Assembly: GCA_964016885.1 (NCBI GenBank)
Contig: OZ024745.1
Span: 121,210,001-121,274,000, forward strand
DNA: 64,000 bases
Reading direction: 5' to 3'
Source: Eledone cirrhosa
Taxonomy: Eukaryota
The first letter of the stretch is position 1; every line of letters starts with the position of its first letter. The translations under genes and the position numbers were made by a program. Shown piece by piece: positions 3,440 through 57,916 of this stretch. The notes below the pieces were generated by a model that was given only the letters and a program-made list of their open reading frames with translations, was not told where the DNA came from and did no database searches.

Positions 3440-4417
3440 CACTCGATAATTTTGATTTATAGCAGTAACCTTCTGGATTATCATTTAGTCTAGTCACTAG
3501 ACTAAATGATAATACACTAGACTCTAGTGTATAAGAAACAGGTAGAAGCTTCAAACACATAGAGGTTACTTATTTTACTCGATCGACAAGATCCCAGATT
3601 TCATTCACTTACCAAGGAACCAGGGTTTTCATTGGTCTTTCCAATTGCTGATACTATCTACCGATCACAACCCCTGGCAGAAAGAGCAACGTGAAATAAA
3701 GTGACTTGCTCAAGGATATTAAACATCGCTCGGTCCAGGAATCGAACTCGCAACTCCACGATTGCGAATCCCATTCTCTAACCACTAAGCCATGCACCTT
3801 CTCTAGAGGGTATAGTAGATGTAATATTATGATGTACATCGTGTTTCTGTAAGGAATTGAAACCTGATATTGTACCCCGTGACAGCAAACGCTGTATGGC
3901 ACATATCGTGTTAAAGATTTCGTTTTAATGGGCAGAAAGATGATGGTTTGTAAGTTAGGCGTAAGTTCAGAAATTTGGGGCTGAGTTCATAGCTGTTGTT
4001 TATTTTGTCGAATCCCTCTTCAGGATTTCAACTCAGAACATAAAAAGTCGGTACTGACTTTCTAATGATTCTGCCAGTCCATCACTCCAATGGAGAGAAA
4101 AACGATATTTGGAAGGAAGTGATATCATCGATTGAATCAACCCGAGCGTTTCAATGGCATATATTTCATCAACTCTGAATAGATAAAAGACAAAATCAAT
4201 CCTAACCGGATTTGAACTTAGAATGTAGAGGAACATAATTAGATACTGCAAGGCATTATCTTGACCACCCTATACTTTTTAATACCCCTCTGTTTTATCA
4301 TATAACAATTTAAAAAGCCACACGCACACTGTCTGACTGATAAGCACCCGAAAAGCTTGATAGCCCAAATAGAGAAGCTTTGTTAGCAAATTAACAACAC
4401 CAAGGTTTTCTACTCAC

Positions 4418-7400: not shown

Positions 7401-9562
7401 AGACGTTTCTTCATCCTCAAGATCAGAAACTTTGTCTTTTATAGTGTCAGGTGTAGCATCTATTTCATTAGAGTTGTCGTCACTATCAGAACCTTTTGTG
7501 AAAACAGACCGAACTTTCTTTCGCAAATTACTGAAAGCTTTCGGACTTTCTGAAGAATTTTTGTCCGAATGTTCCTGCTGGTCTACAGACGTTTCTTCAT
7601 CCTCAAGATCAGAAACTTTGCCTTTTATAGTGTCAGGTGTAGCATCTATTTCATTAGAGTTGTCGTCACTATCAGAACCTTTTGTGAAAACAGACCGAAC
7701 TTTCTTTCGCAAATTACTGAAAGCTTTCGGACTTTCTGAAGAATTTTTGTCCGAATGTTCCTGCTGGTCTACAGACGTTTCTTCATCCTCAAGATCAGAA
7801 ACTTTGCCTTTTATAGTGTCAGGTGTAGCATCTATTTCATTAGAGTTGTCGTCACTATCAGAACCTTTTGTGAAAACAGACCGAACTTTCTTTCGCAAAT
7901 TACTGAAAGCTTTCGGACTTTCTGAAGAATTTTTGTCCGAATGTTCCTGCTGGTCTACAGACGTTTCTTCATCCTCAAGATCAGAAACTTTGCCTTTTAT
8001 AGTGTCAGGTGTAGCATCTATTTCATTAGAGTTGTCGTCACTATCAGAACCTTTTGTGAAAACAGACCGAACTTTCTTTCGCAAATTACTGAAAGCTTTC
8101 GGACTTTCTGAAGAATTTTTGTCCGAATGTTCCTGCTGGTCTACAGACGTTTCTTCATCCTCAAGATCAGAAACTTTGTCTTTTGTAGTGTCAGGTGTAG
8201 CATCTATTTCATTAGAGCTGTCGTCACTATCAGAACCTTTTGTGAAAACAGAGCGAACTTTCTTTCGCAAATTACTGAATGGTTTTATATTTTCTTTTGG
8301 ACTCTCTGGGGAAGTTTTGTCCGAATGTTCCTGTTGGTCTTCATAATTTTCTAAACATATAGCAGAATCATTACTAAATCTATTCCGTCTATTGGCGTTA
8401 TCCTTTGAAGAAATTGAGTCATATGTTCTCTCATCTTTTAAAATGGCTTTATTAGATACATTTTCGTTAACAAATTTATTGCCTGGAGCTTGTTTTCTGT
8501 TAATCATATGTAAATCCTCGCAAGTGTCTTCCTTTGCACGATTATCTTTTGACACCTGATCAGCAGGCAGAAGGTCTATATTACGACGAGAATTAAGAGG
8601 AGCAAGTTTCTCCTCAACAGCCACTTTCAAATCTGAACTATACCAAGGAACATCGTTTCCAATATCGGAAGCTTTTTCCTTTGACCGATTAACTGTATCT
8701 TCTCCCTGATTATAATCGTTTAGTTCTTTACTTGAGTTGTTAACATTTTGTGAGGGAAATTGTTTGTGTTGGGACTCGTAAGTAGATTTTCCGATCTTAT
8801 CTTCAATACCTATAAAATCTGAATATTTATTTTGGTTGTCCGATTCAACTTCTTTTTGATAATTTGCAGCATTTGGAAAAATGTTCTCTGTATTGTTTGG
8901 AGTTGTTTTAACGGCTTTATTTTCGGTTTCTTTGTGTGTCACATTAATCTGAACTGGTTTTATGAAGAAGTCTTTATTTTCAGCAATTATTTTAGGCGTG
9001 GCATTCAATTTGCTACGATAAGATATCATTTTCTCTTCTACTCGATCCAAGCTGTAACAGTTTAGACCAGTAGCGTCTCTATCTTGATAGTCATTGGAAA
9101 GGTATTGATCATTATCGCAGACGTTTTCTACAGGAACACTTTCTTCTTCTTCTGACTCAGAGGACTTGTTCCGATTCATATTTGTTGAGCTTATACTCTT
9201 TGGCTGAGACAAACGTTTTGGTGAAGGTAACCTATTTGTCTTTTTGATAGTATTTGATAAATTTGATCTGGTATCGTCAGTACTAGAATTCCTTTTGGTA
9301 TTACTACTTGTTGTTTGTTTGCTTTGAGGAATGGTACTTTTGGAATAATCCTTTCCTAGTTGACTTGAAGATTCTTTTAATTTGTTTGATTTCACTGATA
9401 TGTGGGGCGGTAGTGGTATTCGAGTCTTGTTATCAGAGCTCTGCTTTCGTCCTCTGTCAAATGGACTCGCTTCACGTCGGTCTCTAGAGCTTGTTCTAGG
9501 AGTTCGAGATAAACCTCTATTTTGAGAAGCACCGTCTTCTTTCTGTTGCAACACAGGTGTCG
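4418..9562 (-). CDS. Giant internal coding exon (5145 nt, phase 1 to phase 1) of an uncharacterised, Ser/Asp/Glu/Lys-rich, probably disordered protein with 62-aa tandem repeats
   Basis: 1714-aa ORF bounded by acceptor ttttcaacttacAG|CG ACA CCT GTG (AG at 9564-9563) and donor TCA T|GTGAGT (GT at 4417-4416). Length is exactly 1715 codons. No family recognised. Confidence 0.85.
7010..8345 (-). repeat. Coding tandem repeat, 186-bp / 62-aa unit, about 7 units
   Basis: GCTTTCGGAC recurs at 7351, 7537, 7723, 7909, 8095 (period 186). Protein unit QQEHSDKNSSESPKAFSNLRKKVRSVFTKGSDSDDNSNEIDATPDTIKGKVSDLEDEETSVD; outer units diverged. Confidence 0.95.
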
Positions 9563-38819: not shown

Positions 38820-40328
38820 TCTGTTTGGTTTGGGTGCTGTCAGGGGTGTAGCCGTACTCACCATGCTATCTTGGACATCTGTTTGGTTTGGGTGCTGTCA
38901 GGGGTGTAGCCGTACTCATCATGCTATCTTGGACATCTGTTTGGTTTTGGTGCTGTCAGGGGTGTAGCCGTACTCACCATGCTATCTTGGACATCTGTTT
39001 GGTTTTGGTGCTGTCAGGGGTGTAGCCGTACTCACCATGCTATCTTGGACATCTGTTTGGTTTTGGTGCTGTCAGGGGTGTAGCCGTACTCATCATGCTA
39101 TCTTGGACATCTGTTTGGTTTTGGTGCTGTCAGGGGTGTAGCCGTACTCACCATGCTATCTTGGACATCTGTTTGGTTTTGGTGCTGTCAGGGGTGTAGC
39201 CGTACTCACCATGCTATCTTGGACATCTGTTTGGTTTTGGTGCTGTCAGGGGTGTAGCCGTACTCATCATGCTATCTTGGACATCTGTTTGGTTTTGGTG
39301 TTGTCAGGGGTGTAGCCGTACTCATCATGCTATCTTGGACATCTGTTTGGTTTTGGTGCTGTCAGGGGTGTAGCCGTACTCACCATGCTATCTTGGACAT
39401 CTGTTTGGTTTGGGTGCTGTCAGGGGTGTAGCCGTACTCATCATGCTATCTTGGACATCTGTTTGGTTTTGGTGTTGTCAGGGGTGTAGCCGTACTCATC
39501 ATGCTATCTTGGACATCTGTTTGGTTTTTGGTCCTGTCAGGGGTGTAGCCGTACTCATCATGCTATCTTGGACATCTGTTTGGTTTTGGTGCTGTCAGGG
39601 GTGTAGCCGTACTCATCATGCTATCTTGGACATCTGTTTGGTTTGGGTGCTGTCAGGGGTGTAGCCGTACTCATCATGCTATCTTGGACATCTGTTTGGT
39701 TTGGGTGCTGTCAGGGGTGTAGCCGTACTCACCATGCTATCTTGGACATCTGTTTGGTTTGGGTGCTGTCAGGGGTGTAGCCGTACTCATCATGCTATCT
39801 TGGACATCTGTTTGGTTTTGGTGTTGTCAGGGGTGTAGCCGTACTCATCATGCTATCTTGGACATCTGTTTGGTTTTTGGTCCTGTCAGGGGTGTAGCCG
39901 TACTCATCATGCTATCTTGGACATCTGTTTGGTTTTGGTGCTGTCAGGGGTGTAGCCGTACTCATCATGCTATCTTGGACATCTGTTTGGTTTTGGTGCT
40001 GTCAGGGGTGTAGCCGTACTCACCATGCTATCTTGGACATCTGTTTGGTTTGGGTGCTGTCAGGGGTGTAGCCGTACTCATCATGCTATCTTGGACATCT
40101 GTTTGGTTTTGGTGTTGTCAGGGGTGTAGCCGTACTCATCATGCTATCTTGGACATCTGTTTGGTTTTGGTGCTGTCAGGGGTGTAGCCGTACTCATCAT
40201 GCTATCTTGGACATCTGTTTGGTTTTTGGTGCTGTCAGGGGTGTAGCCGTACTCACCATGCTCGCTTGGCCATCTGTTTGGTTTTGGTCCTGTCAGGGGT
40301 GTAGCCGTACTCACCATGCTCGCTTGGC
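38820..40328. repeat. 58-bp minisatellite, about 26 copies
   Basis: Unit CTGTTTGGTTTTGGTGCTGTCAGGGGTGTAGCCGTACTCAYCATGCTATCTTGGACAT. Confidence 0.97.
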
Positions 40329-42697: not shown

Positions 42698-42744
<47 letters not shown>

Positions 42745-43005
42745 TTTCTTTATTAACCACAAGGGTTTACATAAAGTAGACATTAAGGACAGTGCAGGAC
42801 AATGCAGGACGGTACAAATGGGCATTTCTGCGTGTAAAAAAAACAAAAATAGAGGATGTAACAAAAATAACAATGAAAATAACAATGAAAAATTCCCCAA
42901 TAGGGGGGAGACTTCGGAGGGACATTTGTGGAGAAAGCCCAGTAAAAAGCCACAATGACCCTGACCACCAAGGCAAGTGCCCTCTCCCAGTTTTCCACCT
43001 TTAGT

Positions 43006-46000
43006 TTACAGATATATACTCAGAGTCGGCCCATTCACTCGGGCCATTCTTGCTTCTCTCACCCATCTTTCAACAAAATGCTGGGAAGAGAGCACTTCCT
43101 TCTCTACTCTGATTTTCCTTTTCAAATGAAATTTGAAAAAGTCAATCAGAGCATCACCGAAGAGGTAAGTGCTCGTCTTCAGCCCTTTCAAACGTGTCCA
43201 CCATACTATCTCTTTCGCCATGGCCACCAGACAGATAAAAACTGCCTGCCCTTCCCGGCTAAAGGAGGAGGGCGGGGCAATCCTCACGATAGACTCAGAT
43301 GATAGCTGGATCCGTCCTAAACGCGACAGCAGGTGTTCGACATAAACCCACAAGTCAGCAATTTTCGGACACTGGACGAGTGCGTGCAGGACGGTTTCGT
43401 CGCCCTGCGCGCATCTCGGACATGCCCGGCTGACGGCACCTCCATGCCTGTAGAGTTTATCCCGAACTGGCAAGGCTCCTCGGTAGCACTGCCAGGCCAG
43501 AGATTTCTGGAAGTTGTCCATAGGCCCTGGCCCGAAGGTTCTTCCGAAGAGATTGGCTAGTTGATTTTCGTCGACGCCTAGAGTTTCCCCAAGTACGTCG
43601 TCGCTCTTCCCCTCCACTAATCCTCTATAGAACGCCGAGGTGGAGTTTCCACCGATCACATTGCCCGATTGGTCGAGGGCTGTGAGCGCCTGAAGACATT
43701 CCAGTCTCCAGGCGCTCCCTCTCGGTCTTCGCTTGACCCAGGACTGCAGCTCCGTCAAGGAAACGAGCTGGGGAAAAACGCGTCTAGCAAACGGCGACCA
43801 CACCTGATCACCGTCGAGGAAGAGGTGGAGATGTCGTAGCCTGAGCGCGTGCCTGCGCATCATCAGCCACGGCATGCCCAGCCCTCCACGTAGCGGGTGT
43901 TGACAACAGATGGACCGCCTGACCATCGGAGCACGTCCCTTCCACAAAAAGCGAAAGAGCAAACGCTCCAGCGCAGTCAGGCGAGGCTTAGGACAAGGTA
44001 CGACGGTTAGGCGGTAGCAGATGACAGACGCGATGTACGCGTTAGCCACCTCCGCTCGACCTTTCAGGGATAGCTTCCTCTCCGCCCATTTCTGGGTGAG
44101 AGAAGCCACCCTGCTCGTCACCTCGTCCCAGTTTTTGTCCGTCTGGAGGTCCGGACCGAACCAGACCCCTAGCAATTTAACCGGTCCGTCCGTCCAGCGC
44201 CCGACGACGCTGTTGGACGGCATGGACCTGCCTCTCCAGGTGCCGAGCTGCAGGCCCACTGACTTTTCCTGGTTGATCATTGCTCCTGTCACCGCTTCGT
44301 ATTCTCTTAGTGTAGTGCCGATCGCCTCGATGTGTTTGGCGTTCGACACCACTACGGTGACATCGTCCGCATATGCTGACACGGATCTTCCGCATCCTAG
44401 TTCGCGCGGGACCCCCCTCAACGTCTCCAGTTTGTGCAGTAATGGCTCGAGAGTCAATACGTACAAGAGGGACGAGAGGGGACATCCTTGGCGGACCGAG
44501 CGCATGATGTTGAACGGTTCCGACAGGTGACCGTTCACTCTCACCACAGAGCAGATGTCGCTGTGCATGGCAGCGATCCAGCCTCTGAAGACGGGCCCAA
44601 AGCCAGCCGCCCTCAGGACTGCCGCTAGGTAACGATGGTCGACCCTATCGAAAGCTTTCGACTGATCTAAATTGATCAAGGACCCACCCGTGCCAGGTTC
44701 CCTAGCTACCCTCTCTACGATGTATCGCATGAGGTGGAGGTTGTCGTGGATGGATCTGTCGGGAATGGCGCATGTCTGCGCCTCTCCCACCAGACCACCA
44801 ACGACAAGCGCCAACCTCTTTGCTAGCACCTTGGCCAAAATCTTAAACTCTGTGTTTAGCAGAGTTATGGGCCGGAAATTGTCTATGTTATCCCCCTTGT
44901 TCGGATCCTTTCTCAGCAGTGCCACCGCTCCTCGGCTCACAGAACTGGGAATTCTCCCGTTCTGTTGCCAGTTGCAGTAGACGTCCGCCAAGAGGCCTTC
45001 GAACAAGTCTGGCATCTGTACGTAAAGTTCATAGGGCAGACCATCCAAACCAGGCGATTTACCCCTTGTGCAGCCAGTCATTGCCTCCCGTACTTCAGCG
45101 GCTGTTATCGGCTTTTCGCAACACCTCGCCTCAGTGGCCGAGAGCCGCGGCAGTCCGTCGAGGTAGACACTAAAGTCCATCCCTCTACCCGGCCCCCCGC
45201 TGCCCCCGAACAGCTGAGCGAAGTGTCGCTGAAAAGCTTCACACATTTGCCCGGGATCGAGTAGCATGCGCCCGTCGTGGTCCACCAAAGACCGGATCGT
45301 GGCTTTGTTGCCACGACGCGCCTCCGCCACTCGGGCCCATTGAACGGCTTTCGTCCCCTCGTGTCTGAGAGCACGCACCCTTGCTCTGACAACGCAGCCT
45401 TCGTGCTTTGCATTGAAGAATTGGTCAAGGGCCAATTTCGCCGCAAGCACGTCGGTCGCAATGCCTTTGCTAAGCGCCTCGTCTAATTTTCTAACTAGTT
45501 CTCCCTCTGCTCTATTTTTCTCTATTGCTAAAGCCTTACTAAACCTAATCGATTCTATTCTAATCGCTCTTTTCAGAGCAAACCACCACTTGTTGTTGAC
45601 GATGGCCCCCGTCAACGCCCGTTTAACTAGTTCGCTAATCCGGTCTCTGTAGGCCTTGCGCGCTGGTAAGGACGCGTTTAGCTTCCAGTAGCCGGGTCCT
45701 CGTCTATGAAGCCTATCTAAGTCAAGCACACAGATCACGAATTTGTGGTCCGTGTAGCTGACTATCTTGAATTGTGGACAGCCTATGCTAGACCTATCTA
45801 TTTCCCTACAAAATACTCTATCTAGATATGATCTGGATGACCCTATGCGGTTTGTCCAAGTCCACATTGGCACATTCGGGAAATCCAATCGGTACCTGTC
45901 AGACAGTTCAAAACGCCTGAGCAGGTTGGTGAGGCTCTTGCACCCTCCACCCCTATCCGCTAATCCCACACAGTCCCAGCGTGCATCTAAGATCCCGTTC

Positions 46001-46425
46001 CAGTCGCCCACTAACACTAAAGAGCGGGACGTTCCAAGAAAGGTCTCCAGACGCCGGAAGAAATCAGGCCGCCCTGCTCCTGTCGGGGCATAGACGGCCA
46101 CTAGCCTGAAAGCTTGCCCGTCTCCGCTGGTCACGTCCAGCACCACCAGCTTACCCTCTGGGTCCAGGAAGATGGCCCGTATGGCGAGATCCAAACCTCT
46201 CCGAAAAAGCACAGCAACTCCTCCACCGGATCCAGGACGGCTGGGAGATGCGTACACATCGAAGCCGCCGAAGATCGGTGCGAAGGCCCGTGCTTCGGAG
46301 ATTCTGGTCTCGCTGATGGCCACTACATCTATGTTTAGTGACCTGAGGTCGTTGAGCAGGTGACCCTGCTTCCATGACGACCCCAAGCCACGCGCATTTA
46401 TGCTGCCTATTCTGAGTGAGGTCAT
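43006..46425 (-). CDS. ORF2p: APE-type endonuclease, reverse transcriptase, C-terminal CCHC zinc finger (1139 aa)
   Basis: APE motifs SINARG, SET, GDWN, LDR, TDH. RT motifs KSPGLDG, FRPITLLN, DQSKAFD, QGCPLS, YADD. Zinc finger CPRC-x8-H-x4-C. GPGYWKLN linker is typical of L1/Tx1. Confidence 0.97.
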   Translation of the reverse strand: MTSLRIGSINARGLGSSWKQGHLLNDLRSLNIDVVAISETRISEARAFAPIFGGFDVYASPSRPGSGGGVAVLFRRGLDLAIRAIFLDPEGKLVVLDVTSGDGQAFRLVAVYAPTGAGRPDFFRRLETFLGTSRSLVLVGDWNGILDARWDCVGLADRGGGCKSLTNLLRRFELSDRYRLDFPNVPMWTWTNRIGSSRSYLDRVFCREIDRSSIGCPQFKIVSYTDHKFVICVLDLDRLHRRGPGYWKLNASLPARKAYRDRISELVKRALTGAIVNNKWWFALKRAIRIESIRFSKALAIEKNRAEGELVRKLDEALSKGIATDVLAAKLALDQFFNAKHEGCVVRARVRALRHEGTKAVQWARVAEARRGNKATIRSLVDHDGRMLLDPGQMCEAFQRHFAQLFGGSGGPGRGMDFSVYLDGLPRLSATEARCCEKPITAAEVREAMTGCTRGKSPGLDGLPYELYVQMPDLFEGLLADVYCNWQQNGRIPSSVSRGAVALLRKDPNKGDNIDNFRPITLLNTEFKILAKVLAKRLALVVGGLVGEAQTCAIPDRSIHDNLHLMRYIVERVAREPGTGGSLINLDQSKAFDRVDHRYLAAVLRAAGFGPVFRGWIAAMHSDICSVVRVNGHLSEPFNIMRSVRQGCPLSSLLYVLTLEPLLHKLETLRGVPRELGCGRSVSAYADDVTVVVSNAKHIEAIGTTLREYEAVTGAMINQEKSVGLQLGTWRGRSMPSNSVVGRWTDGPVKLLGVWFGPDLQTDKNWDEVTSRVASLTQKWAERKLSLKGRAEVANAYIASVICYRLTVVPCPKPRLTALERLLFRFLWKGRAPMVRRSICCQHPLRGGLGMPWLMMRRHALRLRHLHLFLDGDQVWSPFARRVFPQLVSLTELQSWVKRRPRGSAWRLECLQALTALDQSGNVIGGNSTSAFYRGLVEGKSDDVLGETLGVDENQLANLFGRTFGPGPMDNFQKSLAWQCYRGALPVRDKLYRHGGAVSRACPRCAQGDETVLHALVQCPKIADLWVYVEHLLSRLGRIQLSSESIVRIAPPSSFSREGQAVFICLVAMAKEIVWWTRLKGLKTSTYLFGDALIDFFKFHLKRKIRVEKEVLSSQHFVERWVREARMARVNGPTLSIYL

Positions 46426-46460
46426 GTTTAAAATAGAGTGGAAAAGATGGGAAAGACCAC

Positions 46461-48590
46461 TTACCGTACTTTTGGTAGAGGAGGGATGGTTTTTACATCC
46501 CTTTTCACTTGATCGTCTGGTGAAGGGACCGTTGAATCGTCTCTTCGGCTGGTCGTCGGCTCTTCTAAGAGAATGTCTGAGTATACTCTTCGATTGATGG
46601 TTCCTCCTAGGTCCCTGAAATCACCAACTGCGTTGGGGAATTTCGTTTTAATATTTGTGTATTGTTTCTGTGCTATTTTTAGCAGTCTTATGTTAGTTGG
46701 CGTTTTGATTGGTGCTGGTATTATGTAGTCCTGTTGTGAAATGTCTGTGTGTTCAATTATGTAAGTCATTAGTTTCTTGTTGTGTGTATTTATTGCCGTG
46801 CATTTGTTTTTCTGGGGGTGGGGTGTGGTTCTGCTATTTTCTTGTCGTTGTTGCTGGGTGTGTGTGTTTTGTTGTTGTGTTTGCGATGTTGGTGCTTGTG
46901 GTGGTGGTGTTGAAGGTGTTGTTGGCGGTGGGGTTGTCGCCGGTGGTGATGGTGGCGCTAGTGTGGGTGGTGATGGTGTTGGTGTTGTTGCTGCTGTGGG
47001 TCTCTTTGCAGTAGACTTTACCCTTTTCTCATTTCTTTCCTCCCTTTTCAAAGGCGACGATGCGCTGCTTCTGCGTTTGTGCCTTCTTACGACCTTTTGC
47101 CATCCCTCTCCCACCTCACACTCCATGTCTGATTCTGTGAGGTCGGGGAGGGGTACCAACTCCACTCTTTCACTTGTTGTTGTTGGTGATGTTTGCACTG
47201 GAGTCTCTGTTGCAGCTGCATTTGGTATTGCTGTTGTTGTTGTTAGTATTTCCACTGCTGCTGCTGTTTTTGATTTCCGTGGAGTGGGTATGGGTGCCAC
47301 GGGCCTATCGTTCCTGGTTGCCGCTTGTCCTGTTGCTGGTAGCCGTGGAGCCGGATTCGGAAGGAGGGGGGTTTTCTCCTTTCTCAGGGTCTTCTCGTTG
47401 CAGAAGGCCCTGAGGTGAGTCTTCGATCCACAGCGAAAGCATTTCGGGCGTTTGCCCTCAACACTTATGGGCAGTTGAGTGCCGTTATCGAAGTCTATCA
47501 CATCCGGGATAGCTTCGATGCACTCCTGGTTGGTTTGGATTAGCATCTCAATGGAGGAGCCGACCCAATCTTCTCTTACTTTTTTCTGTACTTGCAGTAC
47601 AGTTGTTTTGTCCTCGATTCCGACGAGGACAGACGCGGCCAGCCAAGAAGGGGTCATTCCGGGGGGGACGTGGGTCAGTTTGACCCTCACAATTTTTTGC
47701 CCGCAGTAGGAGGGCACCAACACCATTTCCTCGCTCCTTAGGGTCACTACTGATTGGGCCTTTGCCTCCTGGGGTGTGGCAAAAAGTACGTCTACGGTGG
47801 CGTATTTTTTGCCTCGGGTGATGTGCGTTTTCCTCTGCCACACAGACCCCAAGGCTTTTTGTATTTGGGCCTCTGTGGCTCTTTCCACCCTACGGGATTT
47901 TGTACTTACTGTACGGTACGTGACCGTACAGTGCTCTTGGGTTTCGAAAAAACTTTTCGCTGCCTTGCAGATTGCTCGGTGTCCGTTCTTTGTCACCATC
48001 TTCTTCGCTTCCTCTAATTCCTCATTTGTTATGAGGATTGTTTCCAAATTTTTCGCAATACCTGCAAATGAGATTGGTTTTTCTCTGCTGTTGTTGTTGT
48101 CGTCAGAGCTGCTGGTACTTTTGTTGTTGCTGCAGGTACTACGACTACTGCCTCCGCCGCTGTTGCTGTGGTTGTTGTTGGTGTTGCTGCTGCTAATGCT
48201 GTTGTTGTTTATGCTGCTGGTGATGCTGTTGCGGCTGCTACTGTTGTTTTCATTGTCACTGTTGCTGTTGTTATTACGGCTGCTACTGCTATTATTCCTG
48301 ACGTCAGACGAATGAACTGGGTTTTCGTATTTCCCGCACACCTGTTTCGTCGCTGTCGTCGTCGTCGTGGAGAAACCTTGCACGCTTTGCACGAGACTTT
48401 TCTTTTCTTTCGTCGCTTGCGAAAGAGAAGGGAGGGAGAGAGACACATTTAAAGAAGGGAGGGAGAGAGACAATCTTCTCTCTGCTGTAGTGATGATTGA
48501 GGAAGAAGAAGACGGAATGAGTGGGAGTGACGTATGAAATTTCATTTTGGTAGCCATGTTTTTTTGTTTAAAATGAAATTTTGGGTACAA
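46461..48590 (-). CDS. ORF1p: gag-like nucleic-acid-binding protein with one CCHC knuckle (709 aa; true start may be the second ATG)
   Basis: CFRCGSKTHLRAFC = Cx2Cx4Hx4C; N/S-rich and P/T-rich low-complexity tracts; ends 35 nt before ORF2. Confidence 0.9.
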   Translation of the reverse strand: MYPKFHFKQKNMATKMKFHTSLPLIPSSSSSIITTAERRLSLSLPSLNVSLSLPSLSQATKEKKSLVQSVQGFSTTTTTATKQVCGKYENPVHSSDVRNNSSSSRNNNSNSDNENNSSSRNSITSSINNNSISSSNTNNNHSNSGGGSSRSTCSNNKSTSSSDDNNNSREKPISFAGIAKNLETILITNEELEEAKKMVTKNGHRAICKAAKSFFETQEHCTVTYRTVSTKSRRVERATEAQIQKALGSVWQRKTHITRGKKYATVDVLFATPQEAKAQSVVTLRSEEMVLVPSYCGQKIVRVKLTHVPPGMTPSWLAASVLVGIEDKTTVLQVQKKVREDWVGSSIEMLIQTNQECIEAIPDVIDFDNGTQLPISVEGKRPKCFRCGSKTHLRAFCNEKTLRKEKTPLLPNPAPRLPATGQAATRNDRPVAPIPTPRKSKTAAAVEILTTTTAIPNAAATETPVQTSPTTTSERVELVPLPDLTESDMECEVGEGWQKVVRRHKRRSSASSPLKREERNEKRVKSTAKRPTAATTPTPSPPTLAPPSPPATTPPPTTPSTPPPQAPTSQTQQQNTHTQQQRQENSRTTPHPQKNKCTAINTHNKKLMTYIIEHTDISQQDYIIPAPIKTPTNIRLLKIAQKQYTNIKTKFPNAVGDFRDLGGTINRRVYSDILLEEPTTSRRDDSTVPSPDDQVKRDVKTIPPLPKVR

Positions 48591-49069
48591 AACCCCAATA
48601 ACTGGTTATTTAACCCCGAAGGGCCAAATAACGGACAGAAAGACCCCTCTCACGAGGAGGAGGGTGTCTTTATCAACAATTTGGTTCAAGTTTTAAACAA
48701 TTTACAATTGTTTTAACGGTTAAAAATTACTATACCTTACAGAGCCGAGCCTCCGTCAACCATGGCATTCAATAATAATAATAATATTAATAATAATAAT
48801 AATAATGATTTCTTTATTAACCACAAGGGTTTACATAAAGTAGACATTAAGGACAGTGCAGGACAATGCAGGACGGTACAAATGGGCATTTCTGCGTGTA
48901 AAAAAAACAAAAATAGAGGATGTAACAAAAATAACAATGAAAATAACAATGAAAAATTCCCCAATAGGGGGGAGACTTCGGAGGGACATTTGTGGAGAAA
49001 GCCCAGTAAAAAGCCACAATGACCCTGACCACCAAGGCAAGTGCCCTCTCCCAGTTTTCCACCTTTAGT

Positions 49070-52000
49070 TTACAGATATATACTCAGAGTCGGCCCATTC
49101 ACTCGGGCCATTCTTGCTTCTCTCACCCATCTTTCAACAAAATGCTGGGAAGAGAGCACTTCCTTCTCTACTCTGATTTTCCTTTTCAAATGAAATTTGA
49201 AAAAGTCAATCAGAGCATCACCGAAGAGGTAAGTGCTCGTCTTCAGCCCTTTCAAACGTGTCCACCATACTATCTCTTTCGCCATGGCCACCAGACAGAT
49301 AAAAACTGCCTGCCCTTCCCGGCTAAAGGAGGAGGGCGGGGCAATCCTCACGATAGACTCAGATGATAGCTGGATCCGTCCTAAACGCGACAGCAGGTGT
49401 TCGACATAAACCCACAAGTCAGCAATTTTCGGACACTGGACGAGTGCGTGCAGGACGGTTTCGTCGCCCTGCGCGCATCTCGGACATGCCCGGCTGACGG
49501 CACCTCCATGCCTGTAGAGTTTATCCCGAACTGGCAAGGCTCCTCGGTAGCACTGCCAGGCCAGAGATTTCTGGAAGTTGTCCATAGGCCCTGGCCCGAA
49601 GGTTCTTCCGAAGAGATTGGCTAGTTGATTTTCGTCGACGCCTAGAGTTTCCCCAAGTACGTCGTCGCTCTTCCCCTCCACTAATCCTCTATAGAACGCC
49701 GAGGTGGAGTTTCCACCGATCACATTGCCCGATTGGTCGAGGGCTGTGAGCGCCTGAAGACATTCCAGTCTCCAGGCGCTCCCTCTCGGTCTTCGCTTGA
49801 CCCAGGACTGCAGCTCCGTCAAGGAAACGAGCTGGGGAAAAACGCGTCTAGCAAACGGCGACCACACCTGATCACCGTCGAGGAAGAGGTGGAGATGTCG
49901 TAGCCTGAGCGCGTGCCTGCGCATCATCAGCCACGGCATGCCCAGCCCTCCACGTAGCGGGTGTTGACAACAGATGGACCGCCTGACCATCGGAGCACGT
50001 CCCTTCCACAAAAAGCGAAAGAGCAAACGCTCCAGCGCAGTCAGGCGAGGCTTAGGACAAGGTACGACGGTTAGGCGGTAGCAGATGACAGACGCGATGT
50101 ACGCGTTAGCCACCTCCGCTCGACCTTTCAGGGATAGCTTCCTCTCCGCCCATTTCTGGGTGAGAGAAGCCACCCTGCTCGTCACCTCGTCCCAGTTTTT
50201 GTCCGTCTGGAGGTCCGGACCGAACCAGACCCCTAGCAATTTAACCGGTCCGTCCGTCCAGCGCCCGACGACGCTGTTGGACGGCATGGACCTGCCTCTC
50301 CAGGTGCCGAGCTGCAGGCCCACTGACTTTTCCTGGTTGATCATTGCTCCTGTCACCGCTTCGTATTCTCTTAGTGTAGTGCCGATCGCCTCGATGTGTT
50401 TGGCGTTCGACACCACTACGGTGACATCGTCCGCATATGCTGACACGGATCTTCCGCATCCTAGTTCGCGCGGGACTCCCCTCAACGTCTCCAGTTTGTG
50501 CAGTAATGGCTCGAGAGTCAATACGTACAAGAGGGACGAGAGGGGACATCCTTGGCGGACCGAGCGCATGATGTTGAACGGTTCCGACAGGTGACCGTTC
50601 ACTCTCACCACAGAGCAGATGTCGCTGTGCATGGCAGCGATCCAGCCTCTGAAGACGGGCCCAAAGCCAGCCGCCCTCAGGACTGCCGCTAGGTAACGAT
50701 GGTCGACCCTATCGAAAGCTTTCGACTGATCTAAATTGATCAAGGACCCACCCGTGCCAGGTTCCCTAGCTACCCTCTCTACGATGTATCGCATGAGGTG
50801 GAGGTTGTCGTGGATGGATCTGTCGGGAATGGCGCATGTCTGCGCCTCTCCCACCAGACCACCAACGACAAGCGCCAACCTCTTTGCTAGCACCTTGGCC
50901 AAAATCTTAAACTCTGTGTTTAGCAGAGTTATGGGCCGGAAATTGTCTATGTTATCCCCCTTGTTCGGATCCTTTCTCAGCAGTGCCACCGCTCCTCGGC
51001 TCACAGAACTGGGAATTCTCCCGTTCTGTTGCCAGTTGCAGTAGACGTCCGCCAAGAGGCCTCCGAACAAGTCTGGCATCTGTACGTAAAGTTCATAGGG
51101 CAGACCATCCAAACCAGGCGATTTACCCCTTGTGCAGCCAGTCATTGCCTCCCTTACTTCAGCGGCTGTTATCGGCTTTTCGCAACACTTCGCCTCAGTG
51201 GCCGAGAGCCGCGGCAGTCCGTCGAGGTAGACACTAAAGTCCATCCCTCTACCCGGCCCACCGCTGCCCCCGAACAGCTGAGCGAAGTGTCGCTGAAAAG
51301 CTTCACACATTTGCCCGGGATCGAGTAGCATGCGCCCGTCGTGGTCCACCAAAGACCGGATCGTGGCTTTGTTGCCACGACGCGCCTCCGCCACTCGGGC
51401 CCATTGAACGGCTTTCGTCCCCTCGTGTCTGAGAGCACGCACCCTAGCTCTGACAACGCAGCCTTCGTGCTTTGCATTGAAGAATTGGTCAAGGGCCAAT
51501 TTCGCCGCAAGCACGTCGGTCGCAATGCCTTTGCTAAGCGCCTCGTCTAATTTTCTAACTAGTTCTCCCTCTGCTCTATTTTTCTCTATTGCTAAAGCCT
51601 TACTAAACCTAATCGATTCTATTCTAATCGCTCTTTTCAGAGCAAACCACCACTTGTTGTTGACGATGGCCCCCGTCAACGCCCGCTTAACTAGTTCGCT
51701 AATCCGGTCTCTGTAGGCCTTGCGCGCTGGTAAGGACGCGTTTAGCTTCCAGTAGCCGGGTCCTCGTCTATGAAGCCTATCTAAGTCAAGCACACAGATC
51801 ACGAATTTGTGGTCCGTGTAGCTGACTATCTTGAATTGTGGACAGCCTATGCTAGACCTATCTATTTCCCTACAAAATACTCTATCTAGATATGATCTGG
51901 ATGACCCTATGCGGTTTGTCCAAGTCCACATTGGCACATTCGGGAAATCCAATCGGTACCTGTCAGACAGTTCAAAACGCCTGAGCAGGTTGGTGAGGCT

Positions 52001-52489
52001 CTTGCACCCTCCACCCCTATCCGCTAATCCCACACAGTCCCAGCGTGCATCTAAGATCCCGTTCCAGTCGCCCACTAACACTAAAGAGCGCGACGTTCCA
52101 AGAAAGGTCTCCAGACGCCGGAAGAAATCAGGCCGCCCTGCTCCTGTCGGGGCATAGACGGCCACTAGCCTGAAAGCTTGCCCGTCTCCGCTGGTCACGT
52201 CCAGCACCACCAGCTTACCCTCTGGGTCCAGGAAGATGGCCCGTATGGCGAGATCCAAACCTCTCCGAAAAAGCACAGCAACTCCTCCACCCGATCCAGG
52301 ACGGCTGGGAGATGCGTACACATCGTAGCCGCCGAAGATCGGTGCGAAGGCCCGTGCTTCGGAGATTCTGGTCTCGCTGATGGCCACTACATCTATGTTT
52401 AGTGACCTGAGGTCGTTGAGCAGGTGACCCTGCTTCCATGACGACCCCAAGCCACGCGCATTTATGCTGCCTATTCTGAGTGAGGTCAT
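49070..52489 (-). CDS. ORF2p (APE-RT-CCHC), copy 2
   Basis: 1139 aa, intact; 3 aa differences from copy 1 (GGYD/GGFD, EAKC/EARC, LFGG/LFEG). Confidence 0.97.
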   Translation of the reverse strand: MTSLRIGSINARGLGSSWKQGHLLNDLRSLNIDVVAISETRISEARAFAPIFGGYDVYASPSRPGSGGGVAVLFRRGLDLAIRAIFLDPEGKLVVLDVTSGDGQAFRLVAVYAPTGAGRPDFFRRLETFLGTSRSLVLVGDWNGILDARWDCVGLADRGGGCKSLTNLLRRFELSDRYRLDFPNVPMWTWTNRIGSSRSYLDRVFCREIDRSSIGCPQFKIVSYTDHKFVICVLDLDRLHRRGPGYWKLNASLPARKAYRDRISELVKRALTGAIVNNKWWFALKRAIRIESIRFSKALAIEKNRAEGELVRKLDEALSKGIATDVLAAKLALDQFFNAKHEGCVVRARVRALRHEGTKAVQWARVAEARRGNKATIRSLVDHDGRMLLDPGQMCEAFQRHFAQLFGGSGGPGRGMDFSVYLDGLPRLSATEAKCCEKPITAAEVREAMTGCTRGKSPGLDGLPYELYVQMPDLFGGLLADVYCNWQQNGRIPSSVSRGAVALLRKDPNKGDNIDNFRPITLLNTEFKILAKVLAKRLALVVGGLVGEAQTCAIPDRSIHDNLHLMRYIVERVAREPGTGGSLINLDQSKAFDRVDHRYLAAVLRAAGFGPVFRGWIAAMHSDICSVVRVNGHLSEPFNIMRSVRQGCPLSSLLYVLTLEPLLHKLETLRGVPRELGCGRSVSAYADDVTVVVSNAKHIEAIGTTLREYEAVTGAMINQEKSVGLQLGTWRGRSMPSNSVVGRWTDGPVKLLGVWFGPDLQTDKNWDEVTSRVASLTQKWAERKLSLKGRAEVANAYIASVICYRLTVVPCPKPRLTALERLLFRFLWKGRAPMVRRSICCQHPLRGGLGMPWLMMRRHALRLRHLHLFLDGDQVWSPFARRVFPQLVSLTELQSWVKRRPRGSAWRLECLQALTALDQSGNVIGGNSTSAFYRGLVEGKSDDVLGETLGVDENQLANLFGRTFGPGPMDNFQKSLAWQCYRGALPVRDKLYRHGGAVSRACPRCAQGDETVLHALVQCPKIADLWVYVEHLLSRLGRIQLSSESIVRIAPPSSFSREGQAVFICLVAMAKEIVWWTRLKGLKTSTYLFGDALIDFFKFHLKRKIRVEKEVLSSQHFVERWVREARMARVNGPTLSIYL

Positions 52490-52524
52490 GTTTAAAATAG
52501 AGTGGAAAAGATGGGAAAGACCAC

Positions 52525-54654
52525 TTACCGTACTTTTGGTAGAGGAGGGATGGTTTTTACATCCCTTTTCACTTGATCGTCTGGTGAAGGGACCGTTGAA
52601 TCGTCCCTTCGGCTGGTCGTCGGCTCTTCTAAGAGAATGTCTGAATATACTCTTCGATTGATGGTTCCTCCTAGGTCCCTGAAATCACCAACTGCGTTGG
52701 GGAATTTCGTTTTAATGTTTGTGTATTGTTTCTGTGCTATTTTTAGCAGTCTTATGTTAGTTGGCGTTTTGATTGGTGCTGGTATTATGTAGTCCTGTTG
52801 TGAAATGTCTGTGTGTTCAATTATGTAAGTCATTAGTTTCTTGTTGTGTGTGTTTATTGCCGTGCATTTGTTTTTCTGGGGGTGGGGTGTGGTTCTGCTA
52901 TTTTCTTGTCGTTGTTGCTGGGTGTGTGTGTTTTGTTGTTGTGTTTGCGATGTTGGTGCTTGTGGTGGTGGTGTTGAAGGTGTTGTTGGCGGTGGGGTTG
53001 TCGCCGGTGGTGATGGTGGTGCTGGTGTGGGTGGTGATGGTGTTGGTGGTGTTGCTGCTGTGGGTCTCTTTGCAGTAGACTTTACCCTTTTCTCATTTCT
53101 TTCCTCCCTTTTCAAAGGCGACGATGCGCTGCTTCTGCGTTTGTGCCTTCTTGCGACCTTTTGCCATCCCTCTCCCACCTCACACTCCATGTCTGATTCT
53201 GTAAGGTCGGGGAGGGGTACCAGCTCCACTCTTTCACTTGTTGTTGTTGGTGATGTTTGCACTGGAGTCTCTGTTGCAGCTGCATTTGGTATTGCTGTTG
53301 TTGTTGTTAATATTTCCACTGCTGCTGCTGTCTTTGATTTCCGTGGAGTGGGTATGGGTGCCACGGACCTATCGTTCCTGGTTGCCGCTTGTCCTGTTGC
53401 TGGTAGCCGTGGAGCCGGATTCGGAAGGAGGGGGGTTTTCTCCTTTCTCAGGGTCTTCTCGTTGCAGAAGGCCCTGAGGTGAGTCTTCGATCCACAGCGA
53501 AAGCATTTCGGGCGTTTGCCCTCAACACTTATGGGCAGTTGAGTGCCGTTATCGAAGTCTATCACATCCGGGATAGCTTCGATGCACTCCTGGTTGGTTT
53601 GGATTAGCATCTCAATGGAGGAGCCGACCCAATCTTCTCTTACTTTTTTCTGTACTTGCAGTACAGTTGTTTTGTCCTCGATTCCGACGAGGACAGACGC
53701 GGCCAGCCAAGAAGGGGTCATTCCGGGGGGGACGTGGGTCAGTTTGACCCTCACAATTTTTTGCCCGCAGTAGGAGGGCACCAACACCATTTCCTCGCTC
53801 CTTAGGGTCACTACTGATTGGGCCTTTGCCTCCTGGGGTGTGGCAAAAAGTACGTCTACGGTGGCGTATTTTTTGCCTCGGGTGATGTGCGTTTTCCTCT
53901 GCCACACAGACCCCAAGGCTTTTTGTATTTGGGCCTCTGTGGCTCTTTCCACCCTACGGGATTTTGTACTTACTGTACGGTACGTGACCGTACAGTGCTC
54001 TTGGGTTTCGAAAAAACTTTTCGCTGCCTTGCAGATTGCTCGGTGTCCGTTCTTTGTCACCATCTTCTTCGCTTCCTCTAATTCCTCATTTGTTATGAGG
54101 ATTGTTTCCAAATTTTTCGCAATACCTGCAAATGAGATTGGTTTTTCTCTGCTGTTGTTGTTGTCGTCAGAGCTGCTGGTACTTTTGTTGTTGCTGCAGG
54201 TACTACGACTACTGCCTCCGCCGCTGTTGCTGTGGTTGTTGTTGGTGTTGCTGCTGCTAATGCTGTTGTTGTTTATGCTGCTGGTGATGCTGTTGCGGCT
54301 GCTACTGTTGTTTTCATTGTCACTGTTGCTGTTGTTATTACGGCTGCTACTGCTATTATTCCTGACGTCAGACGAATGAACTGGGTTTTCGTATTTCCCG
54401 CACACCTGTTTCGTCGCTGTCGTCGTCGTCGTGGAGAAACCTTGCACGCTTTGCACGAGACTTTTCTTTTCTTTCGTCGCTTGCGAAAGAGAAGGGAGGG
54501 AGAGAGACACATTTAAAGAAGGGAGGGAGAGAGACAATCTTCTCTCTGCTGTAGTGATGATTGAGGAAGAAGAAGACGGAATGAGTGGGAGTGACGTATG
54601 AAATTTCATTTTGGTAGCCATGTTTTTTTGTTTAAAATGAAATTTTGGGTACAA
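52525..54654 (-). CDS. ORF1p, copy 2
   Basis: 709 aa, intact; 4 aa differences from copy 1, all in the P/T-rich half. Confidence 0.9.
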   Translation of the reverse strand: MYPKFHFKQKNMATKMKFHTSLPLIPSSSSSIITTAERRLSLSLPSLNVSLSLPSLSQATKEKKSLVQSVQGFSTTTTTATKQVCGKYENPVHSSDVRNNSSSSRNNNSNSDNENNSSSRNSITSSINNNSISSSNTNNNHSNSGGGSSRSTCSNNKSTSSSDDNNNSREKPISFAGIAKNLETILITNEELEEAKKMVTKNGHRAICKAAKSFFETQEHCTVTYRTVSTKSRRVERATEAQIQKALGSVWQRKTHITRGKKYATVDVLFATPQEAKAQSVVTLRSEEMVLVPSYCGQKIVRVKLTHVPPGMTPSWLAASVLVGIEDKTTVLQVQKKVREDWVGSSIEMLIQTNQECIEAIPDVIDFDNGTQLPISVEGKRPKCFRCGSKTHLRAFCNEKTLRKEKTPLLPNPAPRLPATGQAATRNDRSVAPIPTPRKSKTAAAVEILTTTTAIPNAAATETPVQTSPTTTSERVELVPLPDLTESDMECEVGEGWQKVARRHKRRSSASSPLKREERNEKRVKSTAKRPTAATPPTPSPPTPAPPSPPATTPPPTTPSTPPPQAPTSQTQQQNTHTQQQRQENSRTTPHPQKNKCTAINTHNKKLMTYIIEHTDISQQDYIIPAPIKTPTNIRLLKIAQKQYTNIKTKFPNAVGDFRDLGGTINRRVYSDILLEEPTTSRRDDSTVPSPDDQVKRDVKTIPPLPKVR

Positions 54655-55039
54655 AACCCCAATAACTGGTTATTTAACCCCGAAGGGCCAAATAACGGAC
54701 AGAAAGACCCCTCTCACGAGGAGGAGGGTGTCTTTATCAACAATTTGGTTCAAGTTTTAAACAATTTACAATTGTTTTAACGGTTAAAAATTACTATACC
54801 TTACAGAGCCGAGCCTCCGTCAACCATGGCATTCAATAATAATAATAATATTAATAATAATAATAATAATGAACATAACAATAATAATAATGATGATGAT
54901 GATGATGATAAGGAGGAGGAGGAGGGTTTTGATGTTGATGATGATGATGGTGATTTTTTTTTTATTCAGCACGAAGGGTTTACAAAACAAAAACTCATTC
55001 AGGGCAGTACAAAAACGATACACCGTGGATTTATGGAAA

Positions 55040-55335
55040 CATGTGGTCGCAGCATTGTCGAATCGTTAAGATTAGGTTCCGGGTTCAATCACACTGCATC
55101 TTGGTCAAGTGTTACCACAGCTTCGACCTTGTGACTGAAACTGATTAGACAAGAACTGTTTGGAAGACTTTTTGATGGACTGCAACTGTAATTCAAAGGG
55201 CCAGCCTTGTCACACACTGTCTCTGATATTAACGTTAAGTGTACACATTCATATAGAATGCTCAGCCACTTACATATTAATTCCACGAGCAGAGTGTTCC
55301 ATTGATCAAACTTATAAAACATTCATCCATGAAAC
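55040..55335 (+). mobile_element. Degraded tRNA-derived SINE inserted in the old Tx1 3' UTR
   Basis: B-box-like GGTTCAATCAC. Body (GGGCCAGCCTTGTCACACACTGTCTCTGA...TTAATTCCACGAGCAG...TTGATCAAAC) is the reverse complement of the repeat at 1-150 and 18355-18455. Confidence 0.5.
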
Positions 55336-55491
55336 CGACGGAGGTCTAGTTCATGGAAATGTGTGAAAAGGAGAGATAACAAAAACAAAACGAGTAACAA
55401 TAAAATTCAAAACAGAAAATTTCCCAACAAGTGGAAGTCTTCCAAGGGATACTCGTAGAAAACCCCACAAAAGGACGTGGTCACCCTAACC

Positions 55492-56531
55492 CAGTGGTTC
55501 CCAACCATTTGTGTACCATGTCTCACCTCAACATCTAAAAAAGGGTATGCCCCCCTCCCCTCTTTGATATGAACAGCAATGATCAACTGCAAAGTGTAAA
55601 GAAATTGGGGTATAGGTGGTGCCAGATACACAGTAACATATGGAAGAAGAGGTAAGGCAGGAGTTTCTGACAGTGATGTGTACCATATAGGTGGTGCCAG
55701 ATACACAGTAACATGTGTGGAGGAGGTGAGACAGGAGTTTCTGACAGTAATGTGTACCATATAGGTGGTGCCAGATACACAGTAACATGTGGTAGAGGTG
55801 AGACAGGAGTTTCTGACAGTGATGTGTACCATATCAGTGGTGCCAGATACACAGTAACATGTGTGGTGGAGGTGAGACAGGAGTTTCTGACAGTGATGTG
55901 TACCATATAGGTGGTGCCAGATACACAATAACATGTGTGGAGGAGGTGAGACAGGAGTTTCTGACAGTAATGTGTACCATATAGGTGGTGCCAGATACAC
56001 AGTAACATGTGTAGAGGTGAGACAGGAGTTTCTGACAGTGATGTGTACCATATAGGTGGTGCCAGATACACAGTAACATGTGGTAGAGGTGAGACAGGAG
56101 TTTCTGACAGTAATGTGTACCATATAGGTGGTGCCAGATACACAGTAACATGTGTAGAGGTGAGGCAGGAGTTTCTGACAGTAATGTGTACCATATAGGT
56201 GGTGCCAGATACACAGTAACATGTGTAGAGGTGAGACAGGAGTTTCTGACAGTGATGTGTACCATATAGGTGGTGCCAGATACACAATAACATGTGTAGA
56301 GGTGAGACAGGAGTTTCTGACAGTAATGTGTACCATATAGGTGGTGCCAGATACACAGTAACATGTGTGGTGGAGGTGAGACAGGAGTTTCTGACAGTGA
56401 TGTGTACCAAAGTTGCCTTGGTGTAAAAGTAATAAAGTAAATTTGTTCTCATTAATATCATTTTCAAATGGGCCCCTTAAATATTCAAAATTCCCCCCTG
56501 TGGGGTGTGCGCCCCACGTTGGGAATCACTG
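55492..56531. mobile_element. hAT-type non-autonomous element with an internal minisatellite
   Basis: TIRs CAGTGGTTCCCAAC / CAGTGATTCCCAAC; 8-bp TSD CCCTAACC (55484-55491) / CTCTAACC (56532-56539). Confidence 0.85.
55612..56409. repeat. Minisatellite, about 60-63-bp unit, about 13 copies
   Basis: Unit ATAGGTGGTGCCAGATACACAGTAACATGTGTAGAGGTGAGACAGGAGTTTCTGACAGTRATGTGTACCAT with small indels. Confidence 0.9.
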
Positions 56532-57580
56532 CTCTAACCATTAAGGCAAATGCCGTCTCCTAGTTTTCCGCCTCCAATCTACATGTGAAAACTCAGAGCA
56601 GGCCCTCTCACTCGAACAATGCTCGCTACTTTCATCTACATGTCAATAAATTTGCTGGAAGGCAGCACTTAGACTTTTACTCTAAATTTCCTTTTCAAAT
56701 GAAACTTGAAAATGTTGATGAGGGCTTGGCTGAAGTGAAAATATCTGTCTTCAACCCTTTTCATTTAGTTCACCACACAACCTTTTCGTCATAGCCAGTA
56801 GACAGATAAACAGGGCCTGCCCTTCCCGGTTGAAATGAGTGATCTTCACGATAGAGTCAGTTGGTAAATGGGCAAGCGGATCCATCTTACACATGACTAC
56901 AGCTGCTCTTTATAATTCTGAAAGAAGTTATCAATTCTCAGACACAGAACGTGCAAGACGATTTTGTTACCATACTACTTTCGGGTTATTTAGAGCAGTA
57001 GAGCTTCCCGGTAACTCTACCTTATATTTCTGTAAATTGTCAGCTGTCCCCTTGGCTGAGCTCATTCTCAAGAGACCGTTCAGTCTCTCCTCGTATAAAA
57101 CTATAAATAACTATAAACCAATATGTCATAGTGCCCGTAATATTTATTACACTTCAGAACACTTAAGAAATCAATAGAAACAAACACAAACCATAAACAA
57201 ATGATCGAAGAAAAGTACACAAATGTAAGCTGATAGAAAACTAAAATGTTATTCTTCGAAGTAATTTCAAATATTTACCCAAACCAAAATCGATATTTGT
57301 CGATAAAAAGGAAAAAGGAAAATTAATTTTTTAAAATCAAGATCAATAGTTATTGCAAGGTAAAAGAAGTATAAATATATCAATTTGTTAAGATTTTGCT
57401 GACAAGGCAGTAAAGTTTGATCGTGACTAGTACTTTAATACTTTAGTACTTTAGTACTTTAGAACTTTAGTACTTTGCATTTTTGTTTTCGTTCTTTATA
57501 GAAGTACTCACAGCTTGTTAATAGCAGTAATAAAGATGTCTGATTACAACTAGGGTAGCAGTGTAGTTGGAGAGAGGGGG

Positions 57581-57916
57581 AGAATCGCAACGTTACGGTA
57601 GAATCGCAGCGTTAGGGTAGAATCGCAGCGTTAGGGTAGAATCGTAGCGTTAGGGTAGAATGGCAGCGTTAGGGTAGAATCGCAGCGTTAGGGTAGAATC
57701 GTAGCGTTAGGGTAGAATGGCAGCGTTAGGGTAGAATCGCAACGCTACGGTAGAATCGCAGCGTTAGGGTAGAATCGCAGCTTTGGGTAGAATCGCAGCG
57801 TTAGGGAGAATCGCAGCGTTAGGGAGAATCGTAGCGTTAGGGTAGAATCGCAGCGTTAGGGTAGAATCGCAGCGTTAGGGTAGAATCACAGCGTTAGGGA
57901 GAATCGTAGCGTTAGG
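57581..57916. repeat. 20-bp minisatellite containing TTAGGG, about 17 copies
   Basis: Unit TAGAATCGCAGCGTTAGGG with variants. Confidence 0.9.

Follow-up and report, generated by a model that had tools for sequence, protein, structure and literature searches.

Among the closest described systems are Kibi, Koshi and the crocodilian Tx1 families targeting TTCC/TTTC, which are long interspersed nuclear elements (LINEs) with an apurinic/apyrimidinic (AP) endonuclease that insert into microsatellites of vertebrate hosts, the known microsatellite targets being TC, TTC, TTCC and TTTC; in the relevant passages of the source, neither arrays nor borrowing of 5' parts is described (PMC4494074). Here we describe a LINE family of Eledone cirrhosa that inserts into ATT microsatellites, starting from two full-length copies found head-to-tail on the minus strand of a 64,000-nt stretch of the 3.0-Gb genome (contig OZ024745.1, positions 121,210,001 to 121,274,000; hereafter the window, which also gives the coordinates used below). 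Dong, which is placed in the R4 clade and carries the label 'Dong-R4', has a target of the same repeat class, TAA being ATT on the opposite strand. It is listed as TAA-targeting in silkworm, mosquito and snail among the AP-endonuclease types (PMC3812793), and the R4 clade has a restriction-like endonuclease (PMC4640811). In contrast, the endonuclease of the window element is N-terminal and of the AP type, not restriction-like, and the element has two open reading frames (ORFs), so that a target shared with Dong would be convergent.

The R1 element of Drosophila occupies one 28S site with a mostly fixed 14-bp duplication, and new copies enter the 5' duplication of a resident copy (PMC2718515, PMC5932611). 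The family described here resembles R1 tandems in its insertion at the resident's 5' duplication and in its head-to-tail arrays with target DNA between units. It differs in that it targets a microsatellite dispersed through the genome, the duplication of 24-54 bp varies within arrays and ends at the resident's first base, and the resident's 5' part is found on the new unit, which is unreported in the relevant sections on R1 (PMC2718515). In human L1, 22 templated insertion events have been described, whose non-L1 templates are typically <250 bp; the growing cDNA leaves its RNA, pairs with nearby homologous DNA and duplicates it in a way resembling synthesis-dependent strand annealing (SDSA; bioRxiv 10.1101/2024.08.27.596794, citing Gilbert 2005). 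The present case is similar, but here the template is a sister copy, the tracts are of kilobase size, and ~40% of the sampled neighbour pairs exceed 1 kb. R2 is alike in that homology guides completion of the 5' junction, base-pairing being the favoured route of second-strand priming; the homology there is ~28 nt of target sequence on the R2 RNA, whereas here it is the body of the neighbouring element. Neither an ATT-specific Tx1 family nor 5' sharing between tandem LINEs appeared in the titles and abstract openings of the literature searched, and Repbase may already name such a family. What is new is the sharing of 5' parts between neighbours; the ATT specificity adds one member to the known microsatellite-targeting LINEs.

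How LINEs complete their 5' junctions, and how their lineages repeatedly gain new 5' ends, are open questions. Mammalian L1 lineages gain distinct 5' untranslated regions (UTRs). Distinct groups of 5' UTRs have likewise been noted in R1 (PMC2718515). The assembly of E. cirrhosa offers at least 448 head-to-tail junctions (280 + 168), in arrays of up to 10 units; this count is a lower bound, and the search patterns gave unequal numbers on the two strands (268 vs 180). Self-seeding arrays, which an earlier note on this DNA, drawn from the letters alone, had proposed, are supported. Together the junctions record the order and outcome of successive single-site insertions in one genome, and the switch points, at which one kind of sequence gives way to another, can be mapped.

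Adjacent units in these arrays have their 5' parts in common, and their 3' parts not. We aligned 153 full-length copies, which gave 76 adjacent pairs in 31 arrays, 11,453 cross-locus pairs and 244 columns polymorphic across loci. An identical prefix of >1 kb was found in 31 of the 76 adjacent pairs versus 1.8% of the cross-locus pairs, and an identical suffix of >1 kb in 11 of the 76 versus 7.8%. Relative to the control, differences between neighbours rose from a ratio of 0.51 over the leading 500 bp to ~1.0 over the final 1.5 kb, and the contrast between prefix and suffix held when taken per array (Wilcoxon p=0.006, 31 arrays). Locus-private alleles common to the units of an array numbered 30, 17, 10, 11, 5 and 11 in successive kilobases, while singletons were flat. 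The window pair has its 5' 1467 bases identical (control 1.3%), the last 1670 bases being identical as well (control 5.6%), and the allele at element position 818 occurs, among the 153 copies, at the window locus only and in both copies there. The two units, with a period of 6064 bp, differ by 23 substitutions (16 synonymous and 7 replacement, pN/pS ~0.14) and zero indels, all within 44413-47303. Because these differences are mostly synonymous, and 20 of the 23 are alleles present at other loci, the 3' parts have separate origins, and a simple tandem duplication of the window pair was rejected on the same grounds.

Arrays could also grow by tandem duplication or unequal exchange, with incoming cDNA later overwriting the 3' parts. 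Identical spacers do recur (51 bp six times in array a1, 54 bp four times in a2), near-identical units are present in a2 and a8, the units of a22 alternate, and unequal exchange expands dimers of transposable elements in Drosophila (PMC5932611). This process probably adds some units, namely in a2, a8 and a22. Unequal exchange would, however, give 5' and 3' sharing equally often, and a single copy cannot become a dimer with a foreign 3' part such as we see in the window pair, L089/L090 and L095/L076. The left ends of spacers also differ within an array, some having untemplated heads, and the age staircases would require one well-ordered overwrite for every unit. Duplication as the general route is already disfavoured by the asymmetry of prefix and suffix, and we consider the combined scheme improbable. 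Array a22 (G000:C2:119778001-119803500), in which the unit order is A-B-A-B and the spacers have 8, 24 and 8 repeats, is a duplicated dimer or an assembly duplication.

The direction in which the 5' parts travelled can be read where the units of an array differ in age, and arrays were picked for this contrast. In three such arrays, the upstream unit combines a young body with the head of its older downstream neighbour. In a9, 42 changes private to the last unit lie behind position 1038, and each of the three young units upstream also has the five private changes of its 5' part. The trimer L238-L237-L236 ends in a unit that is old throughout; the middle unit (L237) matches this last unit without a difference over the first 1011 aligned bases and the first unit (L238) does so over the first 468, and beyond these switch points both turn young, approaching the window copy. 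Similarly, L116 combines a young body with a head of the old type, which shows 0 differences in 1439 bases from the neighbour downstream. The pair L104/L138 pointed in the opposite direction at first sight; the reading preferred below predicted beforehand that these private 5' alleles would also be present in the unit behind L138, and they are. In a3 and a12, whose upstream unit is plainly the older one, the neighbours share a prefix of 190 and 6 bases, which agrees with simple insertion behind a resident.

The main rival to a borrowing of heads at insertion is a double insertion in the manner of R1, the second cut falling at the border between ATT and element, followed by gene conversion that spreads from the spacer into the neighbouring 5' parts. 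Tandem R1 copies do arise by insertion into the resident's 5' duplication (PMC2718515), an ATT spacer remains a target for nicking, and a sharing that falls with distance from the 5' end also fits conversion tracts. On the other hand, a break in the spacer would be expected to convert the 3' ends too, which show little excess; in the three cases where the age contrast is clearest, the old head spread from the downstream to the upstream unit and not the other way; and the stagger, of 24-54 nt, would have to stop at the same base every time. We therefore regard polar gene conversion after an R1-like insertion as rather unlikely, though still the most serious competitor. An artefact of assembly or polishing that homogenises adjacent repeats deserves mention, since near-identical 6-kb tandem units are hard to assemble and the mosaics are known here from the assembly alone. 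The sharing nevertheless tracks the polarity of the element on both assembly strands (plus in a5, a7, a17 and a23; minus in a1, a9, a13 and the window), and the switch points cleanly divide old from young subfamily sequence, so that we give this explanation hardly any credence.

The DNA between the units tells how the target is renewed. We surveyed the spacers of 23 fetched arrays and the window, where interrupted spacers of <=120 bp numbered 24, from 9 arrays. As many as 22 of them (7 of the 9 arrays) copy the outer 5' flank of the array past the pure run and end at the first base of the next unit; 20 of these 22 do so without an added letter, the other two having heads of 6 and 9 letters, and their length of 24-54 bp varies within an array. 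The two exceptions come from a4 and a5, the former exceeding the flank by one letter and not being counted as a copy. The window spacer is identical to the outer flank letter by letter, including its single interruption, and a 3'-truncated unit in a1 carries the same duplication as its array. At three junctions (a1, L237 and L238) the end of the element runs straight into a non-ATT flank, and copies in ACT or CTT targets have one ATT after their 3' end (1-2 ATT in non-ATT targets overall). The element thus adds little or no tail at these sites, and the target is renewed by target-site duplication, as in R1 tandems. Array a5 (G000:C2:166145001-166185000) has a ~70-bp duplication that flanks three units and spans an ATT tract, 40 bp of other sequence and a second ATT tract, which suggests that the two cuts may each lie in a tract of their own.

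The earlier note had supposed that the (ATT)n tail of a copy regenerates the target and receives the next copy. Some young copies are indeed found behind older relatives (a3, a12, L068 and L087), and in the first two of these arrays a copy has entered the tract that follows an existing one; outer 3' tracts are long, and some spacers are longer than the upstream tract (a6 and a7). The regeneration of the target by the element's own tail was not borne out, because the spacers copy the upstream genomic flank, nearly all informative ones without added letters, and because of the ATT-less junctions and the single ATT left in ACT and CTT targets. Even the tract behind a copy can be explained as target DNA. 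Outer 3' tracts have a median of 14 units (n=110), against 9 for outer 5' tracts (n=65) and 9 for background tracts (n=75), and length-biased targeting alone predicts a mean tract of 14.5 units. We consider it very improbable that tails seed the arrays.

The reading we prefer, at a probability of roughly 0.6, is that a new cDNA, primed in an ATT tract lying immediately upstream of a resident copy, completes its 5' end by switching to that copy. The AP-type endonuclease would nick the AAT strand, often at the start of the tract, and an RNA ending 0-2 AUU units behind GAAAUC would be primed at the nick. Each insertion would duplicate the target tract and leave target on either side, the structure met in the arrays; with a resident 24-54 bp downstream, the duplication would stop precisely at the first base of the resident, and the new unit would begin with a few hundred to several thousand bases of resident sequence, mutations included, both of which match what is seen. 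The cDNA, complete or truncated, would pair with the homologous resident, copy its 5' part and rejoin the upstream flank in an SDSA-like manner. Its template could be the resident's DNA or the nascent transcript of the resident, which are indistinguishable here. Such a switch would give an exact junction without an exact second cut, and the outcome would be a full-length chimera in an array growing on its 5' side.

Several observations weigh against this reading. The pooled direction tests fell short of significance (13 to 8 by linkage, p=0.38; 9 to 6 by private changes, p=0.61), and a further pooled count of 12 to 8 brought no settlement. The shared stretch is <=500 bp in 35 of the 76 adjacent pairs, the near-identical or alternating units of a2, a8 and a22 fit ordinary duplication, and the choice of arrays by intact head-to-tail junctions biases the sample toward full-length units. 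Truncated copies stand unrepaired upstream of residents (L035, L224 and L231), and 36 of the 40 best 3'-end matches are full length, so the youngest subfamily does not plainly yield enough truncated cDNA. Finally, the longer outer 3' tracts may leave room for some growth by tail or slippage.

If heads are borrowed at insertion, arrays would turn truncated cDNAs into full-length and possibly active chimeras, promoters would be shuffled between lineages, and truncated insertions would be repaired. A broader claim, that homology-guided 5' completion on a neighbour is a routine route of insertion genome-wide, in which microsatellite targeting repeatedly places new copies next to old ones and yields full-length chimeras with the resident's promoter, 5' UTR and often ORF1, has in our view even odds. 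Were it true, it would provide a countable natural model of LINE 5'-end swapping and help to explain why intact copies are unusually numerous, why haplotypes are mosaic and how a sister subfamily came to combine the same ORF2 with a different ORF1.

That sister subfamily (L207, L214, L220, L221, L222, L232 and L124; arrays a4, a19 and a21) has 93-98% in common with the window element from element position 2262 on, differs in its 5' UTR and ORF1 (~40% amino-acid identity), and likewise begins after (ATT)n. Its 5' end follows 6 of 156 fetched 3' ends, which makes mixed arrays, and it is a possible product of head swapping.

The preference for ATT was assessed genome-wide. (ATT)3 precedes 1641 of 1687 exact 21-nt 5' ends (~97%) and follows 2972 of 3582 exact 26-nt 3' ends (~83%), against a background of 48,929 pure (ATT)8+ tracts, which make up roughly 0.1% of the genome or less; the association at the 5' ends is therefore not due to chance. 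In the first search, ATT stood at 30 of 30 fetched 5' junctions, and occasional targets besides ATT are CTT, GTT or ACT tracts. Since one sequence type in >20% of flanks has been taken to indicate a target preference (PMC4494074), the figure of 97% places this family well within that definition. An APE-encoding family specific for ATT microsatellites, as proposed earlier, is thus supported, and the contrary outcome named along with that proposal, copies with mostly non-ATT 5' flanks, was looked for across the genome with the result just given. An AP endonuclease with a ~97% preference for (ATT)n, as judged from insertion sites, would offer a clean new specificity for structure-function work.

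Of 20 clearly 5'-truncated copies, 8 show ATT either directly at the new 5' junction or no more than two letters away, many of the other 12 being older; the 20 copies (2 + 18 from 40 position-ordered loci) were read manually, with internal-deletion or other-ORF1 copies excluded. These eight indicate that the repeat comes from the target. ATT as a fixed 5' part of the element is disfavoured, as the runs vary from 3 to 27 units and have locus-specific interruptions, and truncated copies adjoin ATT as well. The 3' end of the family precedes ~27% of the 5' ends, and family-adjacent tracts are estimated at roughly 10-15% of the 48,929; a strong preference for the family's own copies beyond ATT targeting was rejected, the excess being only about twofold by this rough count. 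The target tracts of many loci (e.g. L063, L071, L077, L049, L032 and L061) adjoin a few recurring repeats, and other abundant repeats seem to supply ATT tracts.

The element is a young and very abundant LINE, probably of the L1 group, encoding an AP endonuclease and a reverse transcriptase (RT). ORF2 has the AP-type endonuclease at residues 22-210, the RT at 511-754 (YADD at 685) and a C-terminal zinc knuckle at 974-1026, with PF03372, PF00078 and PF13966 (AP-endonuclease, RT and zf-RVT) above the Pfam cut-off and the catalytic motifs present. Its best match among solved structures is human L1 ORF2 (residues 5-854, E 3e-52); R2 is matched in the RT only (E 1e-21), and no CR1, RTE or I protein was among the returned matches. 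ORF1 has low-complexity ends and one CX2CX4HX4C knuckle; zero families passed the cut-off in its Pfam scan, and its look-alikes are CCHC and ZCCHC3-type RNA-binding proteins (zf-CCHC at 0.90-0.93, a lead only). A CCHC knuckle in ORF1 is a feature of the Tx1 clade of the L1 group, to which the element plausibly belongs by its domain layout. Named protein homologues include those of cuttlefish (50%) and argonaut (64%), and none of the proteins retrieved bore a Tx1 name. In Octopus vulgaris, L1-Tx1 is among the recently active repeats, with 13 families and 421 insertions (PMC13282606). Both ORFs are open in 109 of the 153 full-length units, young copies being over-represented in this sample; among the ORF2 variants that loci have in common, 53 are synonymous versus 28 replacement (site ratio 1 to 3.1). 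Sequencing runs X2, X6 and X7, which bear three different organism codes, contain 72-93% of the sampled words, and contigs of X6 cover the element at ~99%, which may reflect close relatives, contamination or transfer.

At the window locus (Table 1), the reported pair of intact head-to-tail elements was recovered with both ORFs complete in each, and both copies may be competent, judging from their intact frames and catalytic motifs. Each unit ends in AATAAA-GAAATC followed by ATT repeats and adjoins ATT repeats at its 5' end, just as the earlier note had it. The tally of private changes (3 in the left copy, 0 in the right) by itself weakly suggests that the right-hand copy is the younger and was inserted upstream of the left copy, not into its tail. 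The tract behind the left copy is leftover target together with its duplication, any share derived from the element being at most short. To the right stands an older relative, frameshifted and in the same orientation as the LINE pair, with its 3' tip at ~54955-55012 and its 3' body at 56527-56967. At 71% nucleotide identity over 345 bp and 43-48% amino acid identity to the window LINE, it is a distant sister lineage and no close member of the family. The flank at 54835-54951 had been described as the decayed tail of an older, diverged member of the same family; an old relative with a decayed tract in the same orientation is indeed there, but as a sister lineage, and the first 36 bp are the duplicate of the spacer. 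Insertions of three ages, as first described, are nonetheless supported by the two LINE copies and the decayed relative. The insert that splits this relative has 14-bp terminal inverted repeats (13/14 match) and an 8-bp flanking duplication (7/8). Going by the 8-bp duplication rule, we take it to be a miniature inverted-repeat transposable element (MITE) of the hAT type.

Table 1. Features of the LINE locus in the window.
Feature	Position	Strand	Remarks
(ATT)15 tract behind left copy	42698..42742	-	reads (AAT)15 on forward strand
Left (downstream) full-length LINE, likely older	42743..48770	-	6028 bp; 3 private changes, element positions 2229, 3149, 3772
Left-copy ORF2	43006..46425	-	1139 aa
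Left-copy ORF1	46461..48557	-	698 aa
5' 1467 bp, same in both copies	47304..48770 (right copy 53368-54834)	-	
Spacer (ATT)6-AAT-(ATT)5, target-site duplication	48771..48806	-	36 bp; exact duplicate of outer 5' flank
Right (upstream) full-length LINE, likely youngest	48807..54834	-	6028 bp; 0 private changes
Right-copy ORF2	49070..52489	-	1139 aa
Right-copy ORF1	52525..54621	-	698 aa
Outer 5' flank tract	54835..54870	-	36 bp; same 36 bp as spacer 48771-48806
Decayed ATC/CTC/ATT triplet tract behind old relative	54871..54954	-	
5'-truncated, decayed older relative (3' UTR and ORF2 end), split by insert	54955..56967	-	
Insert in older relative	55492..56531	.	1040 bp; MITE-like; 71-bp minisatellite inside

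Elsewhere in the window, an open frame of 1589 aa on the minus strand (4410-9179) contains six 62-aa repeats with a 186-bp period; its Pfam scan gave none above the cut-off, and it is likely to be a large host exon. A 58-bp minisatellite of 26 copies lies at 38820-40327, and a 19-bp minisatellite containing TTAGGG at 57577-57916.

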